Positions 1-45,537 of a stretch of DNA of 64,000 nt are shown here, piece by piece (position 1 is the stretch's first letter; every line of letters starts with the position of its first letter). The position numbers were made by a program, and so were the translations under genes. The notes below the pieces were generated by a model. That model made no database searches, was not told the DNA's origin, and saw nothing but the letters and a program-made list of their open reading frames with translations. Where the stretch lies: NCBI GenBank assembly GCA_026415325.1, contig JAOAHH010000052.1, positions 2,886 through 66,885 on the forward strand, written 5' to 3'. Origin of the DNA: Thermodesulfobacteriota bacterium (GTDB taxonomy: Bacteria; Desulfobacterota; WTBG01; CAIYCZ01; CAIRTM01).

Positions 1-19
1 CGTACACTTCACAAATATT

Positions 20-1375
20 ATGAGACGGATTCTTATCATCGCAGCATCTGATTCTGGCGGCGGCGCTGGCATTCAGGCCGATATCAAAGCGGTAACACTT
101 TATGGTTGTCATGCAATGACCGCAATCACCGCACTGACGGTACAAAATACCATCGGTGTGGAGAACGTGTTACCGGTTGCGGCCTCGTTTGTCGAGGACC
201 AGATCCGCGCGGTGCTTTCGGATATCGGCGCCGATGCGGTCAAAACAGGCATGCTGCTCAATACCGGTATTATCAGGGCAGTTGTCCAGATGCTCACGCG
301 TTTTCCGGTGCCCCGGGTGATTGTCGATCCAGTTATGAAGGCAAAGTCAGGACATAGCCTGCTCGACCCGGCAGCGGTGCAGTGCTTAAAGCGGGAGCTC
401 TTCCCGTGTGCCTTTATGGTAACACCCAATCTTGACGAGGCCGCCGAGCTCTGCGGTTTTGCGGTAGATTCCGATGACGCACTTCGGGAGGCTGCCCGCA
501 TGATCCATGCTCTCGGACCGCGATATGTATTGCTGAAGGGCGGCCATCGCCGCGGCGATTGTTGCGATGTGCTGTATGACGGATCTGTGTTTACCGAATT
601 TGACGGCGAGCGTATCGACACAAAGAACACGCACGGAACCGGCTGCACCCTTGCATCGGCAATTGCAGCCGGACTTGCCCAGGGCATGGACCCTTGTACC
701 GCAGTTCGCAGGGCAAAAGAGTTCGTCACAACCGCAATTCGATGCGCAGCGTCACTCGGTGCGGGGCATGGACCAACCAATCCATTTGCGAATGTTCAGC
801 GCGATGCCCAGATTATGGCCTGTGTTCGTGAGCTTGAGGCAGCGTATGCACAGCTCGAGCAGGCGCGCATCGGCACACTCATTCCCGAGGTGCAATCGAA
901 TTTTGGGTATGCGCTTGCCGGCGCGCAAACGCCCGATGATGTCGTCGCATTTCCGGGCCGTATTGTTCGGTTGCGTGACACCATCGCGCGCGTTGCAGCG
1001 CCTGAACCCGGCGCATCACGCCATATTGCAAAGGTCATTTTAACCGCCCATGCCGCAGACCCGTCGATCCGTTCGGCAATGAACATTGCCTTTTCCGATG
1101 CTCTCCTCAGAAGGTGCAGAGACCGGGGGCTGCGCATTGCAGAATTCAGCCGTACAGATGAGCCATCCGACGTGCAGCATATCGAGGGTTCAACGCTTGA
1201 ATGGGGCACACGGCAGGCGATTGATGCGTTCGGAGGCGTGCCTGATATCATAGCTGATCGCGGCGGGATGGGTAAAGAGCCGATGATACGCGTCCTCGGC
1301 ACCGATCCCAACGATGTCGCACGGAAGGTGATTAGGATACACGAACGGCAGCACAGGGCACAAGACAGGTGCTGA
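20..1375 (+). CDS. thiD: ThiD hydroxymethylpyrimidine/phosphomethylpyrimidine kinase fused to a C-terminal ThiN-type thiamine-phosphate synthase domain (ThiDN)
   Basis: N-terminal 270 aa match the ribokinase-fold ThiD pattern (GGGAGIQADIKA, DPVM, GTGCTLASAIAA). The C-terminal ~170 aa resemble the ThiN domain. ATG at 20 verified in sequence. Confidence 0.85.
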   Translation: MRRILIIAASDSGGGAGIQADIKAVTLYGCHAMTAITALTVQNTIGVENVLPVAASFVEDQIRAVLSDIGADAVKTGMLLNTGIIRAVVQMLTRFPVPRVIVDPVMKAKSGHSLLDPAAVQCLKRELFPCAFMVTPNLDEAAELCGFAVDSDDALREAARMIHALGPRYVLLKGGHRRGDCCDVLYDGSVFTEFDGERIDTKNTHGTGCTLASAIAAGLAQGMDPCTAVRRAKEFVTTAIRCAASLGAGHGPTNPFANVQRDAQIMACVRELEAAYAQLEQARIGTLIPEVQSNFGYALAGAQTPDDVVAFPGRIVRLRDTIARVAAPEPGASRHIAKVILTAHAADPSIRSAMNIAFSDALLRRCRDRGLRIAEFSRTDEPSDVQHIEGSTLEWGTRQAIDAFGGVPDIIADRGGMGKEPMIRVLGTDPNDVARKVIRIHERQHRAQDRC

Positions 1376-41534: not shown

Positions 41535-41549
41535 AACACATGCTGTGTT
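41535..41549. promoter_or_regulatory. 15-bp palindrome AACACA-TGC-TGTGTT abutting a TTGACT/TTGACC -35-like element in the carD / c-di-GMP-module divergent promoter region
   Basis: Read directly. It lies ~65 nt upstream of the ATG at 41615. Confidence 0.25.
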
Positions 41550-41614
41550 GACTTGACCTGTTATGTCTGATATCTTGATAAACGCTATGATATAGCTGGA
41601 AGGTAGAGACCTTT

Positions 41615-41932
41615 ATGCAGCGGATTTCGATTGAACAGGCCCGGCCGGGTATGACGGTTGCCAAGCCGGTTATGAACGAAGCAGGTGTTGTACTGGTCGG
41701 TGCCGGCACACCTCTTACCGATTCGACCATCGAACGGCTAAAACATCTTGAGATTTCTTCTATTATTGTTAAAGGCCGACCCCTTGATATCGGTGTTCAG
41801 GACAAGCCTTTTGAGCAGGTATGTGCAGAGCTCGATGAACGTTTTTCTCTTGTGAGTGACGACAAGCTGTGCGGGCAGATTAAAGAAATCATCCGGAACG
41901 ATCTTCGACGCCGCCGTGAAGAAGAAGGGTGA
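41615..41932 (+). CDS. small protein resembling the N-terminal accessory domain found in front of HD-GYP/c-di-GMP signalling proteins (DUF3391-like)
   Basis: Pattern ARPGMTVAKPVMNEAGVVLVGAGTPLTDSTIERLKHLEI. Assignment from memory of the family pattern only. GGAAGG Shine-Dalgarno upstream. Confidence 0.5.
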   Translation: MQRISIEQARPGMTVAKPVMNEAGVVLVGAGTPLTDSTIERLKHLEISSIIVKGRPLDIGVQDKPFEQVCAELDERFSLVSDDKLCGQIKEIIRNDLRRRREEEG

Positions 41933-41974
41933 TTTTGGCGTCCCATGCGGAGGTATGGATAAACGAAGCGCATT

Positions 41975-42823
41975 ATGGATATCGAAAAAGAAAAGATTCG
42001 CAGGAAGATACGGTCTATTAAAAGTTTGCCCACCTTGCCTGCTGTGGCGCAAAAGGTGAGTAAACTCGCCGAAAGCGATACAACCTCGGCATCGCAACTC
42101 AGTACCATTATTTCTCAGGATCAGGCGCTTTCGGGCAGGGTGTTGCGACTTGTCAATTCATCCTTTTACGGATTTCCCGGCAGGATTTCCAATATTTCAA
42201 ATGCCATTCTGTTGCTCGGGTTCGATGTAGTAAAAAGTCTGATCATCAGCGTGTCGGTTTTTGAGATGATGGAAAAGGGCATTATCGGGCTCTGGGAGCA
42301 CTCGCTGGGCTGTGCGGTGGCGGCACGGATTATTGCGCGCCGGGTCAAAGAGTGCGATCCGGAAGAACTGTCGGTTGCAGGACTTTTGCATGATATCGGT
42401 AAAGTTGTTGTCAGCGTGCAGATGAACGACAGTTATGAGGATATCAAACGGGTGATCAGCGAACAGAAGGTCATTTTTTACGAGGCTGAGAAGCAGGTGC
42501 TGGAATTTACCCATGAGGATATCGGATCATGGCTTGCAGAATCGTGGAATCTGCCGGTGAACTTGCTTGAACCGATTTCCTATCATCATCAGCCGGTAAA
42601 AGCTCCAAAGGCGAAACTGCCTACGGCAATCGTGCATGTAGCTGATTTCTTAACGCGCGCTGTCGGATTCGGATCGGGCGGTGATCCATGGGCACCGCCG
42701 CTCAACCATAAGGCATTTGAACGCATTGGGTTGACGCTGCAGACCATGGAAGATATCGTCCGTGAATTCAACGATGAGCTTGAAACACTTGAAGCACGCA
42801 GTATGTTTGAAGGGACGGGATGA
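41975..42823 (+). CDS. HDOD-domain protein
   Basis: HDOD-like sequence (LPTLPAVAQKV...LLHDIGKVV), 282 aa. Confidence 0.85.
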   Translation: MDIEKEKIRRKIRSIKSLPTLPAVAQKVSKLAESDTTSASQLSTIISQDQALSGRVLRLVNSSFYGFPGRISNISNAILLLGFDVVKSLIISVSVFEMMEKGIIGLWEHSLGCAVAARIIARRVKECDPEELSVAGLLHDIGKVVVSVQMNDSYEDIKRVISEQKVIFYEAEKQVLEFTHEDIGSWLAESWNLPVNLLEPISYHHQPVKAPKAKLPTAIVHVADFLTRAVGFGSGGDPWAPPLNHKAFERIGLTLQTMEDIVREFNDELETLEARSMFEGTG

Positions 42824-43782
42824 GGATGGTAAGCGGGAGTCGGGAAATCTTTTTGATTGCACAGGACGACCAGCTTACCTGGAACATTACAAGAATACTC
42901 GTTGCCCATGATTATCGGATTACAACGTGCCGTACCATTACCGAAGCCCTTGGAAAGGTCTATGAAACACCGCCCCTGCTTATCATTATCCACGAACCCC
43001 TTGTCAGTGGTAAAGGTTTGAAACAACTCAAGAGTTTCAAAAAGGATAATCTTTTTTTTCATATCCCGGTGGTGCTTTTGGTGAGTCCTGCCTGGGAGAA
43101 ACAAAACATAGATTGGGATGAATATCCAGTTGAAGAGTATCTGACGACCGCGTTCCGCAGCGATGAGCTCGTCAACAGAATCTCGCTGTGCGTGACCCGT
43201 TTTTTCAGGGCTCTTGACCCAAACCCCCTGACCCGCCTTCCAGGAAACACCTCGATTCTGCGTCAGATTCAGCATTGCCTTGATCTCGGAAAAAATGTGG
43301 CAATCGCCTATCTTGATATCGACAATTTTAAGGCGTTTAACGATCGGTACGGTTTTTCCCGCGGTGACGAGGCACTTCGTATGGCAGCACGGATTTTGTC
43401 AAACATTATCAAAGATTACCGCAGCGAAGATTCCTTTGTGGGGCATGTGGGAGGAGATGACTTTGTGTTCATTGTACCAACCACCGCGATCGATGAGGTA
43501 TGCAACCGGGTGATTGCCAATTTTGATGCGATCATTCCAAGCCTCTATGATGAAGAGGACAGACGGCGGGGATGCATTGTGGCAAAAGACAGAAGCGGGA
43601 AAAAACAGACCTTTCCGCTTATGAGTGTTTCAATCGCTGTGGTGAGCAATGAAGGCAGACGCCTTTCCCATTATGGAGAGGTCAGTGCGATCGCCTCACA
43701 GGTCAAAAAACACGTCAAAAAGCTCTCCGGAAGCAATTACCTCGTTGACCGTCGGAAAGCAGCGCCGCAGACACAGCAGTGA
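42820..43782 (+). CDS. pseudo-receiver + GGDEF-domain protein (non-canonical GGDDF motif, RxxD I-site present)
   Basis: REC-like N-terminus without a phospho-acceptor Asp (LLIIIHEP). GGDEF domain (YLDIDNFKAFNDRYG...RSEDSFVGHVGGDDFVF). Start overlaps the HDOD stop (ATGA). Confidence 0.8.
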   Translation: MRMVSGSREIFLIAQDDQLTWNITRILVAHDYRITTCRTITEALGKVYETPPLLIIIHEPLVSGKGLKQLKSFKKDNLFFHIPVVLLVSPAWEKQNIDWDEYPVEEYLTTAFRSDELVNRISLCVTRFFRALDPNPLTRLPGNTSILRQIQHCLDLGKNVAIAYLDIDNFKAFNDRYGFSRGDEALRMAARILSNIIKDYRSEDSFVGHVGGDDFVFIVPTTAIDEVCNRVIANFDAIIPSLYDEEDRRRGCIVAKDRSGKKQTFPLMSVSIAVVSNEGRRLSHYGEVSAIASQVKKHVKKLSGSNYLVDRRKAAPQTQQ

Positions 43783-43871: not shown

Positions 43872-44138
43872 TCAGGGGGTTTTATGGGCTGCGGTGCGTT
43901 CCACCGTTTGGCGCAGTCGTTTCAATTCGCGTCGCAGTTTGAACCGCTGGATCATATCAAGCGCATTGCCGATCACCACACCGACCAAAAACGGCACCAT
44001 GATTACCGACCAGAGGGAAACACGCATGGAGTAATATGGTGAAATGTTCACGAGCACGGTCTGGGCATTATTTGTTGCAAACCACACAAGCGAAAAGAGG
44101 ATAACGACGACTGCACAGGTATTAATAAAGAGTCTCAT
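43872..44138 (-). CDS. small two-TM membrane protein, LapA/YciS-like (DUF1049-like)
   Basis: Two hydrophobic helices followed by a basic coiled tail (KLRRELKRLRQTVER). Confidence 0.5.
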   Translation of the reverse strand: MRLFINTCAVVVILFSLVWFATNNAQTVLVNISPYYSMRVSLWSVIMVPFLVGVVIGNALDMIQRFKLRRELKRLRQTVERTAAHKTP

Positions 44139-44186
44139 GGTATGTGTTTAGGATAAGAAAGCGGATAAACAGGCTTTTCCAATTCT

Positions 44187-44387
44187 CTATTTTACCGAAT
44201 CTTGTGGCCGCTGTCGTAATATTATGTCATAAATATCTTCCTTTCTGAATCTCCACGAATTGCCGACGCGGAATCCGGGAATTTGCCCCTTTTTCACCAA
44301 TTTGTACACGGTGATTTTAGAGAGTTTCAGGAATTCGGCGACCTCTTCAACGGTCATAATCTGAGATGTTTCCTTACTCTGTTCCAT
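44187..44387 (-). CDS. excisionase-family helix-turn-helix DNA-binding protein (66 aa)
   Basis: MTVEEVAEFLKLSKITVYKLVKKGQIPGFRVGNSWRF is the MerR-superfamily/Xis-type HTH_17 pattern. Confidence 0.7.
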   Translation of the reverse strand: MEQSKETSQIMTVEEVAEFLKLSKITVYKLVKKGQIPGFRVGNSWRFRKEDIYDIILRQRPQDSVK

Positions 44388-44399
44388 GTTGAACCCTCA

Positions 44400-44736
44400 A
44401 ATGTTTTTAATTATGCTATTAACTTAATAGTTAACACCTTTTTATTAGTCTGCTGATATCAAAACTGTTTTGTTTATATTTTTAACATAAATAAAAAATA
44501 TTTCAATCAATTTTTTTAATAAAATTAAAAAACATCATGATGGAAGATTTTTTCATTAACGAGTTAGATTTTTAATAAAAATTTTTGTCTGATAGTATGA
44601 TCAAAGGGATTTATTTATCGGGAAATCAATCGCTGTTGGATAATCGCTCAATAAAAGGAAGGATATTAAAAAAAGAATAAGATAACGTGCCGCGTCCTTT
44701 GGTGAAAAGATTACTGCATCGGAGACAAACAAAGAA
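44400..44736. other. ~330-bp extremely AT-rich (roughly 25-30% GC) non-coding island with long A/T tracts in an otherwise ~58% GC region
   Basis: Read directly, e.g. aaataaaaaatatttcaatcaatttttttaataaaattaaaaaac. Confidence 0.6.
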
Positions 44737-44737
44737 A

Positions 44738-44766
44738 GCAGGACAGATTGTCCTGCTCTTTTTATT
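44738..44766. terminator. bidirectional rho-independent terminator (GCAGGACA-GATT-TGTCCTGC + TCTTTTT) immediately 3' of tRNA-Pro
   Basis: Perfect 8-bp stem, T-rich on both strands. Confidence 0.6.
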
Positions 44767-44769
44767 CTA

Positions 44770-44846
<77 letters not shown>

Positions 44847-44940
44847 ACGTATGCTGAAGGTGTGGTGCCCGTAGCTGTCGACTGCTCCTGCATAGCACAA
44901 TCGAGGCTGAAAAACAATGGAAAAACAAAACACGACTTTT

Positions 44941-45537
44941 TCACTGCCGGATGATATGGTGTAAAAGTTTTTTAAGTTCCTGCATTGCTTTACCACGATG
45001 GCTGATGCTGTTTTTCTGCTGAGCCTCCATTTCGGCAAACGTAAGCCCAGACTCCTCATCAAGAAACACCGGATCATAGCCAAAACCAGCCGTGCCTCGA
45101 GGCGCCTCGATGATCCGACCGTGACATACCCCTTCAACGGTATATTCATGCGTGCCGGGTATGACAAAAGCGATCACACATCTGAAACGGGCAGTTCGCC
45201 GCTTCTCAGGGATGCCTTTGAGTTCTTTGAGCAGCCGCGCTATGTTTCTTTGCGCATCGCCTTCAACGCCACCGTAGCGGGATGATATCACCCCCGGTGC
45301 CCCACCGAGCGCATCAACCTCAAGCCCAGAGTCGTCTGCCAATGCAGGCAGGCCAGTACATGTTGCAACGGTGCGTGCTTTTTTGAGTGCATTCTCCACA
45401 AGAGTTGCTCCATCCTCGTGCACCTCAGGGCATCCGGGAAAGTCAGTGCAGCAGAGCACCTGTACCGGTAGATCAGAAAGCAATTCCTTCAACTCTTTCA
45501 CCTTGTTATGATTTCTGGTCGCAAGTACGATGTTCAT
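44941..45537 (-). CDS. rdgB: non-canonical purine NTP pyrophosphatase (RdgB/HAM1 family)
   Basis: Ham1-like sequence (IVLATRNHNKVKE...FGYDPVF). Start set to ATG 45537, verified. Confidence 0.9.
   Translation of the reverse strand: MNIVLATRNHNKVKELKELLSDLPVQVLCCTDFPGCPEVHEDGATLVENALKKARTVATCTGLPALADDSGLEVDALGGAPGVISSRYGGVEGDAQRNIARLLKELKGIPEKRRTARFRCVIAFVIPGTHEYTVEGVCHGRIIEAPRGTAGFGYDPVFLDEESGLTFAEMEAQQKNSISHRGKAMQELKKLLHHIIRQ

Follow-up and report, generated by a model that had tools for sequence, protein, structure and literature searches.

What drives a diguanylate cyclase whose receiver-like domain has no phosphate acceptor, and is such a protein a cyclase at all? The question is raised by three adjacent plus-strand genes in a 64,000 nt stretch of DNA from a Thermodesulfobacteriota bacterium (assembly GCA_026415325.1, contig JAOAHH010000052.1, positions 2,886 to 66,885; the whole stretch is called the window below). 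They encode p1, a small protein, p2, an HDOD protein, and p3, in which a receiver-like N-terminal domain is followed by a GGDEF domain with the active-site motif GGDDF. The reading proposed here, which has an even chance of being right, is that p3 would be a working cyclase that converts guanosine triphosphate (GTP) to cyclic di-guanosine monophosphate (c-di-GMP), and that it belongs to a GGDDF subfamily in which control by a kinase was replaced by p1 and the HDOD protein. This is a receiver-GGDEF subfamily with a non-kinase, two-protein input and not a new class of system. HDOD domains are widespread and have no established enzymatic activity or ligand, and the operon bears on their function. 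The switching of pseudo-receivers without phosphorylation has been called a mystery in a 2025 perspective (PMC12632262).

An earlier note on this DNA, made from the sequence alone, had described three plus-strand genes with overlapping stop and start codons. Database entries 100% identical to p1 and to p3 place the source in a metagenome-assembled genome of the Desulfobacterota (Thermodesulfobacteriota). The open reading frames (ORFs) are real and their coordinates unchanged (Table 1), and the ATG of p3 (42820-42822) overlaps the TGA of p2 (42821-42823) as ATGA, but the overlap is limited to this junction, p1 and p2 being 42 nt apart. The naming of the second gene as HDOD and the third as GGDEF with a GGDDF motif was borne out by the Pfam scan of the three proteins that the note had suggested. 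p2 matches PF08668 (HDOD) with 210.6 bits over the full length of the profile (positions 1-196 of 196) and also the embedded Pfam HD domain (E 1.4e-12), while p3 matches PF00990 (GGDEF) with 60.0 bits (cut-off 23.8) and TIGR00254 with 63.5 (cut-off 37.4). On the other hand the scan left the N-terminal domain of p3 under the cut-off of PF00072 (Response_reg; 19.3 bits, cut-off 30.2), and p1 without a match. More distant members of the p3 family exceed the Response_reg cut-off, a profile of the family matches receiver 1 of PleD (E 1.8e-10), and an AlphaFold model of p3 built on 50 homologues (predicted local distance difference test score, pLDDT, 89.6) consists of a complete (beta-alpha)5 receiver (E9-13, H17-28, E33-37, H40-47, E54-58, H64-75, E84-88, H90-94, E106-109, H114-132), a long linker helix and a complete GGDEF fold. 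In the HMMER alignment His58 (42991-42993) stands at the position of the phospho-acceptor Asp53 of PleD, in agreement with the claim that the receiver-like domain lacks the acceptor, and Thr110 takes the place of the conserved receiver Lys. Judged by these residues, the domain is a pseudo-receiver.

The loss of the acceptor can be placed in the history of the family. A pattern scan covering one genome per species returned p3 relatives in at least 595 species genomes, spanning Desulfobacterota, Nitrospirota, Omnitrophota, Planctomycetes, Elusimicrobia, Gemmatimonadota, Clostridia, Actinomycetota, Chloroflexota and others. ORFs were called in the 80 best loci and in five metagenomic loci, and searched with hidden Markov models (HMMs) of p1 and of HDOD. 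In 40 loci the GGDDF gene is directly preceded by an HDOD gene, and in 38 of these the HDOD gene is in turn directly preceded by a p1 homologue, the exceptions being one contig edge and one locus in which none was detected. The trio was also present in all three loci looked up from distant p1 homologues (30-36% identity). The order p1, HDOD, GGDDF is constant while the flanking genes change completely between lineages, and the genes always lie close together, either overlapping or a short gap apart, but the junction that overlaps is not always the same one. Because the trio is found again in many genomes, among neighbours that differ, it is not due to chance, and the proposal, made from this locus alone, that the three genes form one sensor/effector unit is supported. 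In a neighbour-joining tree of the GGDEF domain alone, which is therefore independent of the receiver, all 40 HDOD-linked sequences (from Desulfobacterota, Nitrospirota, Geobacteraceae and others) fall in one clade. Its sole other member, from locus L023, has lost its upstream region at a contig end.

In sister lineages outside this clade the same position is held by a kinase. The loci of the other lineages have neither p1 nor HDOD; in about 20 of them a histidine-kinase-like gene is directly adjacent to the GGDDF gene, preceded in 13 by a FIST-like gene, and for example proteins the domains FIST_N/FIST_C and GAF-HisKA-HATPase were confirmed by Pfam. In these kinase-linked lineages (Omnitrophota, Planctomycetes, Clostridia, others) the gene comes after the histidine kinase, and its receiver is usually canonical. 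Omnitrophota and Planctomycetes have a conserved operon that runs from FIST through a GAF-histidine kinase and ends with the GGDDF regulator, which here has a canonical receiver; loci with this row are L021, L022, L033, L040-L042, L045, L049, L053, L054, L058, L059 and L068. The receivers differ accordingly. Asp58 is present in 44/45 sequences from lineages without HDOD and in 17/41 HDOD-linked proteins, and Lys110 in 35/45 and 6/41, respectively. The full phosphorylation set, defined as an acidic residue at 16, Asp58, Ser/Thr88 and Lys110, occurs in 27 of 45 sequences without HDOD and in none of 40 with it. Apart from D58 the HDOD-linked clade has lost or relaxed G66, G103 and the switch residue Y107, and it has gained P51, W99 and L123, of which Trp99 is specific to the clade.

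An exchange of the input is suggested because sister lineages have a kinase in the same position and the HDOD clade has a decayed receiver. The simplest reading is that a kinase-controlled GGDDF regulator acquired the p1-HDOD pair on a single occasion, and that selection for phosphotransfer was then relaxed while a new surface came under selection. It is extremely improbable that p3 is instead an ordinary orphan response-regulator cyclase with p1 and HDOD as mere neighbours: gene order has been conserved through a complete change of flanks, across taxa the start codons overlap the preceding stop codons or lie near them, the HDOD-linked clade is monophyletic, and decay of the receiver tracks linkage to p1 and HDOD. 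In two loci of Nitrospirota type the upstream genes are present in extra copies, the p1-HDOD pair being tandemly duplicated before the GGDDF gene in L010 (1506-4942) and an additional HDOD gene lying upstream of the trio in L030 (1928-4927), which suggests that p1-HDOD is an evolving unit.

A member of the family has probably been studied already. In Desulfovibrionales the trio is part of a fixed six-gene row that consists of a TPR/YfiO-like gene, DprA, p1, HDOD, the GGDDF regulator and a Xer-type tyrosine recombinase (L004:1210-6967, L086:1952-7066, L087:2024-7023, L088:1865-7336), a hint that the trio might be connected with DNA processing or the cell cycle. A figure legend on the operons of Desulfovibrio vulgaris regulators lists TPR, DprA, "uk", HD, the regulator and XerC (PMC4114195), and for DVU2067 of D. 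vulgaris Hildenborough these elements match the Desulfovibrionales row around p1-HDOD-GGDDF. DVU2067 is also the most conserved receiver-GGDEF regulator in Desulfovibrio (PMC4114195), and it is the probable orthologue of p3, as judged by operon layout, size and this remark on conservation and not by sequence. In vitro it gave a very small c-di-GMP peak on which acetyl phosphate had no effect (Rajeev et al. 2014, PMC4114195), its Congo-red colonies were orange rather than pink, and its transposon mutant had a growth lag, the only planktonic growth defect among eight regulators tested (PMC4114195). These findings fit an enzyme that needs partners rather than phosphorylation. The paper left the "uk" and HD neighbours and the motif variant unanalysed (PMC4114195), and no paper that analyses the p1-HDOD-GGDDF module was found in the literature. 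The module thus occurs in tractable organisms (Desulfovibrio, Geobacteraceae), in one of which the probable orthologue has a reported mutant phenotype.

Is the GGDDF domain then an enzyme? The motif departs from [G/A/S]G[D/E]E[F/Y] by the conservative change of Glu to Asp at the fourth position, and the earlier note took this as a sign that enzymatic activity may be degenerate. Because one of the scan patterns included GGDDF, the scan set gives biased motif counts. A count free of this bias comes from the 120 closest homologues of p3, of which 118 read GGDDF and one GGDQF. The genes of L012 and L027 encode GGDDY. In both clades D166, D168, F170, K171, N174, D175, G182, D183, G208, H209 and G211-D214 vary little or not at all. 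The segment DIDNFKAFNDRYGFSRGDE of p3 aligns with DIDFFKKINDTFGHDIGDE of PleD, so that the guanine-reading Asn and Asp and the metal-binding Asp of the DxD strand are kept. The guanine-specifying residues of PleD are presumably those numbered N335 and D344. Asp183 is found in 100% of the HDOD-linked clade and in 91% of the others. GGDDF is thus a fixed hallmark of a large receiver-GGDEF subfamily and not a product of decay, and a widespread active-site variant of this kind matters for the annotation of c-di-GMP networks, where it should not be read as the sign of a dead enzyme.

The inhibitory site (I-site) behaves in the opposite way. The RxxD motif had been described as retained in p3, but the RSED string sits six residues before the active-site motif and not five, and HMMER needs a gap to match it with RAID of PleD. 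RxxD is found in only 3/41 HDOD-linked sequences, namely p3 and the two nearest to it, L001 and L002, and in 0/45 of the others. As read from these alignments there is no conserved product-inhibition (RxxD) I-site in the GGDDF family. An active site (A-site) that is invariant across phyla together with an unconserved I-site is the reverse of what is seen in receptor-type GGDEF domains, and for this reason the proposal of degenerate scaffolds is unsupported.

Biochemical data on other proteins point the same way. The fourth-position Glu of the GGDEF motif is the catalytic base, for which Asp is able to substitute (PMC8835794), and the GGDDF domain of GSU1937 of Geobacter sulfurreducens, reported as the first such domain active in vivo, was killed by mutation to GADDF (PMC8835794). 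It is therefore very improbable that the GGDDF domain is dead and that the three proteins act as c-di-GMP- or partner-binding scaffolds. The departure from GG(D/E)EF, the lack of a cyclase phenotype for the GGDDF/EAL protein PA3258 (cited in PMC8835794), the near inactivity of DVU2067 in vitro and the RSED string before the motif in p3 of the window would agree with a scaffold, but the residues for catalysis and for the binding of metal and guanine do not vary across many phyla, RxxD is mis-spaced here and unconserved elsewhere, the GSU1937 domain is active, and the kinase-linked sister lineages resemble ordinary signalling enzymes. Refutation of the degenerate module had been tied in advance to GGDDF variants being routinely active and the module being an ordinary diguanylate cyclase operon. 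The fixed motif and the active GSU1937 domain agree with the former, whereas the operon is far from ordinary on its input side.

A working enzyme might also make something other than c-di-GMP. The sequence of p3 aligns only with positions 6-101 of the 161 of PF00990, and the HMMER alignment to PleD, also with the family profile, ends near residue 227. The C-terminal half of the domain is nevertheless strongly conserved within the family, and the fold is complete: Foldseek matched the model of p3 to WspR, DgcR and PleD at E 1e-18 to 1e-16, and isolated solved GGDEF domains gave target-normalised template modelling (TM) scores of 0.7-0.8 against it. It is conceivable that the change of Glu to Asp and the diverged C-terminal half reflect an altered chemistry, and that the subfamily makes a linear or different cyclic (oligo)nucleotide. 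Asp at the fourth position is invariant, the domain from about residue 227 has no sequence alignment to Pfam GGDEF or solved cyclases, a library scan gave a weak match to the Cas10 palm, and DVU2067 made little c-di-GMP and gave orange, not pink, Congo-red colonies (PMC4114195). Against this stand the small DVU2067 peak, which co-migrated with c-di-GMP (PMC4114195), the GSU1937 domain, which made both c-di-GMP and cyclic GMP-AMP (cGAMP) (PMC8835794), the superposition of the predicted p3 fold on ordinary GGDEF domains and the identity of the guanine-reading residues, and a different product is distinctly improbable. With canonical Asn174 and Asp183 and no Ser, p3 is not a Hypr (cGAMP) enzyme. 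The Hypr-diagnostic residue, numbered Ser348 in the GSU1937 paper, is taken here to be the equivalent of D344 in PleD. GSU1937, a membrane protein, differs from p3 in that it has the Hypr Ser and makes cGAMP; in p3 the residue is the canonical Asp183, and a pseudo-receiver is present. The Cas10 match had prompted an anti-phage defence reading, which was rejected without support from PADLOC: p2 showed only a weak similarity of a generic HD/Cas3 kind to its defence models, and p1 and p3 had no meaningful match.

If p3 is a working cyclase, its input may lie in p2 and p1. The nearest solved structure to p2 is the Geobacter HDOD protein 3HC1 (E 2e-32), whose pocket holds two irons by five His and one Asp (PMC12075610). 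H109, H138, D139, H180, H203 and H204 of p2 align with these di-iron ligands, and the six predicted ligands are at least 90% conserved in an alignment of 40 HDOD proteins of the module. p2 is thus predicted to keep the complete binuclear-metal ligand set. 3HC1 was considered as a solved orthologue of p2 and rejected; it is a paralogue, because the HDOD protein of the Geobacteraceae module matches it merely about as well (E 2e-30) as p2 does. Three His of the ligand set are missing from SadB, a proteolysis adaptor that does not bind c-di-GMP in Pseudomonas aeruginosa (PMC12075610), while GsmR and DVU0330 are receiver-HDOD fusions (PMC4114195). Like p2, 3HC1, SadB, GsmR and DVU0330 are HDOD proteins, but none of them is known to partner a cyclase.

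A complete metal site fits an enzyme as well, and it is conceivable that p2 and p3 form a pair for synthesis and degradation, in which HDOD would be a metal-dependent hydrolase of c-di-GMP or the linear dinucleotide pGpG, with p1 regulating it in trans as modules of DUF3391 type go with HD-GYP in cis, so that a local c-di-GMP level is set, and the pseudo-receiver would be regulated otherwise or p3 be constitutive. This would account for the full set of His/Asp ligands of a binuclear HD site, for the fusion of p1-like modules to HD-GYP phosphodiesterases (see below) and for the HD-GYP genes, of GAF-HD-GYP or receiver-HD-GYP type, that adjoin the GGDDF regulator in L060:1845-3857, L072:1912-2979 and L046:1991-3223. 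The isolated HDOD domain of DVU0330 has a weak phosphodiesterase activity, on bis(p-nitrophenyl) phosphate (bis-pNPP) only (PMC4114195). However, hydrolysis of c-di-GMP is not known for any HDOD protein and was not seen with DVU0330, and the GYP motif is missing from HDOD (PMC4114195). Such a pair also leaves it unexplained that the phospho-acceptor residues were lost from the receiver exactly and only in the clade with p1 and HDOD, and it is an unlikely explanation, though the main rival.

The origin of p1 is harder to trace. The earlier note held it to resemble DUF3391, which consists of four strands followed by two long helices and is almost always fused to HD-GYP (Galperin & Chou, bioRxiv 2021.11.05.467447). 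The Pfam scan of p1 gave zero matches, DUF3391 (PF11871) included, and the sole library match was to a NosR-type HD-GYP regulator model, over its C-terminal ~45 positions (E 2e-4). A word-based search with p1 returned only seven close relatives. A profile of the family, searched against 1.8 billion cluster representatives, matched 665 of them at E<=1e-3; the best 150 are nearly all free-standing proteins of about 100-160 amino acids (aa). In a large protein database the best 120 matches of the profile were without a Pfam domain and those with a name were nearly all called "hypothetical protein". A kinship to accessory modules fused to HD-GYP proteins, likely although remote, is suggested because the HD-GYP protein P0245 carries three tandem p1-like modules N-terminal to its HD-GYP domain (HMM, E 4e-12 to 4e-9; the last covers HMM positions 5-98, E 1e-10), because of the NosR-type match, and because 4/70 p1 family members match DUF3391, all weakly (best E 3.4e-4).

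The AlphaFold model of p1 (pLDDT 88.7) predicts a small beta module, residues 1-55, followed by helices 66-76 and 84-104. This predicted layout is reminiscent of that of the Bd1817 family (DUF3391-HD-GYP), in which a module of strands and then two long helices also goes with a partner of the HD superfamily, with the difference that Bd1817 is one fused protein with HD-GYP, whereas here the proteins are separate and the partner is HDOD. Fold searches with p1 returned small beta modules of MoeA and of RNA polymerase beta/beta', and Bd1817 (3TM8) was not among the listed matches; in the fetched loci no DUF3391 protein was found from which a profile could be built. By sequence, p1 is thus at most a remote free-standing relative of the DUF3391-type module, and the link to DUF3391 itself is weak. 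What stood of the earlier assignment is that p1 is free-standing, and the split arrangement was rightly called not a textbook architecture: DUF3391 is almost always fused to HD-GYP, while nearly all members of the p1 family are free-standing, beside HDOD. The only extension other than HD-GYP among the best 150 relatives is an additional N-terminal region of ~120 residues, without a Pfam match, in P0210 (237 aa) and P0235 (242 aa).

It is tempting to speculate how the three proteins work together. HDOD would hold a binuclear, probably iron, centre and could serve as the sensing element for redox state, a gas or a nucleotide. p1 would be an accessory or dimerising module that acts with HDOD as the HD-GYP-fused module does in cis. 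The p1/HDOD pair may dock on the pseudo-receiver, a candidate contact being Trp99 near the alpha4-beta5 region, and docking would, without any phosphorylation, turn dimerisation of the GGDDF domain on or off and with it the synthesis of c-di-GMP. That p1 and HDOD are specifically a di-iron redox or gas sensor with its adaptor, which replaced a histidine kinase and switches the pseudo-receiver cyclase by direct binding, is possible but rather doubtful. If true, it would be the first defined biochemical role for an HDOD domain and a natural, phylogenetically paired case, kinase-driven against partner-driven, of pseudo-receiver activation. The GGDDF family in any event offers a clean comparison, as the same cyclase is kinase-driven in some phyla, whereas in others it goes with p1/HDOD and its receiver has decayed.

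Known cyclases provide parallels for parts of this scheme. DgcR, WspR and PleD (PDB 6zxb/6zxm, 3bre and 1w25), the best structural matches of p3, have in common with it the architecture of receiver, linker helix and GGDEF domain, and DgcR is similar in size (318-residue chain), but all three use a phosphorylatable Asp (D53 in PleD) where p3 has His58. PleD moreover has GGEEF and a correctly spaced RxxD, whereas p3 has GGDDF, no conserved I-site and a diverged sequence in the C-terminal half. There are precedents for control of a cyclase by a separate partner protein. Contacts between RpfG and GGDEF proteins are one; another is SiaC-SiaD, which was among the structural matches of p3 (PDB 7e6g). 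The partners in these systems are of different families, and no sequence relationship of theirs to p1 or HDOD was found.

Several points weigh against the replacement of kinase control by p1 and HDOD. First, Asp58 is kept in 17/41 HDOD-linked receivers, and phosphorylation may persist in part of the clade. Second, DVU2067, itself only a probable orthologue, is almost inactive in vitro. Third, the intact metal ligands of HDOD fit an enzyme as well as a sensor, and the HD-GYP neighbours in three kinase-type loci hint that an HD-family neighbour could be a degrading partner and not an input. Fourth, no genuine gene fusion was found that would support contact. The sole p1-HDOD case, P0258 (197 aa), was rejected as a frameshifted gene call: its joint and end consist of low-complexity sequence rich in Arg, Ser and Gly, which is typical of a frameshift, and poor assembly is likely.

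Table 1. Features of the p1-HDOD-GGDDF operon and its surroundings (positions in the window)
Feature	Position	Residues	Strand	Remark
Candidate operon promoter, sigma-70-like	41548-41576		+	TTGACT-17-TATCTT with TG, 39 nt upstream of p1; consensus scan
p1, 105 aa, free-standing	41615-41932		+	ORF; family without Pfam entry
p2, single-domain HDOD protein, 282 aa	41975-42823		+	Pfam HDOD, E 2e-62
p3, 320 aa	42820-43782	1-320	+	Receiver-GGDEF protein
p3, predicted pseudo-receiver	42820-43215	1-132	+	(beta-alpha)5 fold in AlphaFold model
p3, GGDEF-fold domain	43216-43782	133-320	+	Pfam GGDEF
NPLTRLPGN		135-143 of p3	+	Invariant in the column statistics
RSED string	43420-43431	201-204 of p3	+	Before GGDDF
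GGDDF motif	43450-43464	211-215 of p3	+	Within GHVGGDDF (208-215)
LapA-domain small membrane protein	43872-44138		-	Directly downstream of operon
Excisionase-type HTH_17 protein, 66 aa	44187-44387		-	Downstream of operon
tRNA-Pro(TGG)	44770-44846		-	Downstream of operon
Uncharacterised conserved ORF, 265 aa	45575-46372		-	Adjoins Ham1/RdgB-type gene

The match to a promoter before p1 is weak evidence, as the sigma-70 consensus scan of the region gave 9 matches where 4.7 were expected. The Rfam scan found no riboswitch or other RNA element inside the operon or upstream of it, and no convincing terminator was found at its 3' end. The operon lies between a CarD-type gene that diverges from it and a LapA-domain gene that converges on it, both of which also flank it in close relatives; in one of these, L001, the LapA-domain and HTH_17 genes hold the same positions as here. 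The GC content falls to about 0.38-0.40 over positions 44000-45000 of the window. The counterpart of the conserved ORF beside the Ham1/RdgB-type gene is 264 aa long in L001/L002 and has no Pfam match on record.

The Gemmatimonadota members of the GGDDF family (L052, L063, L071, L074, L077, L078, L081) form a separate branch and have HPSTRLPGT instead of NPLTRLPGN. In four of them (L052, L063, L071, L077) a zinc-ribbon gene lies immediately downstream of the regulator, followed by a release-factor-like gene.

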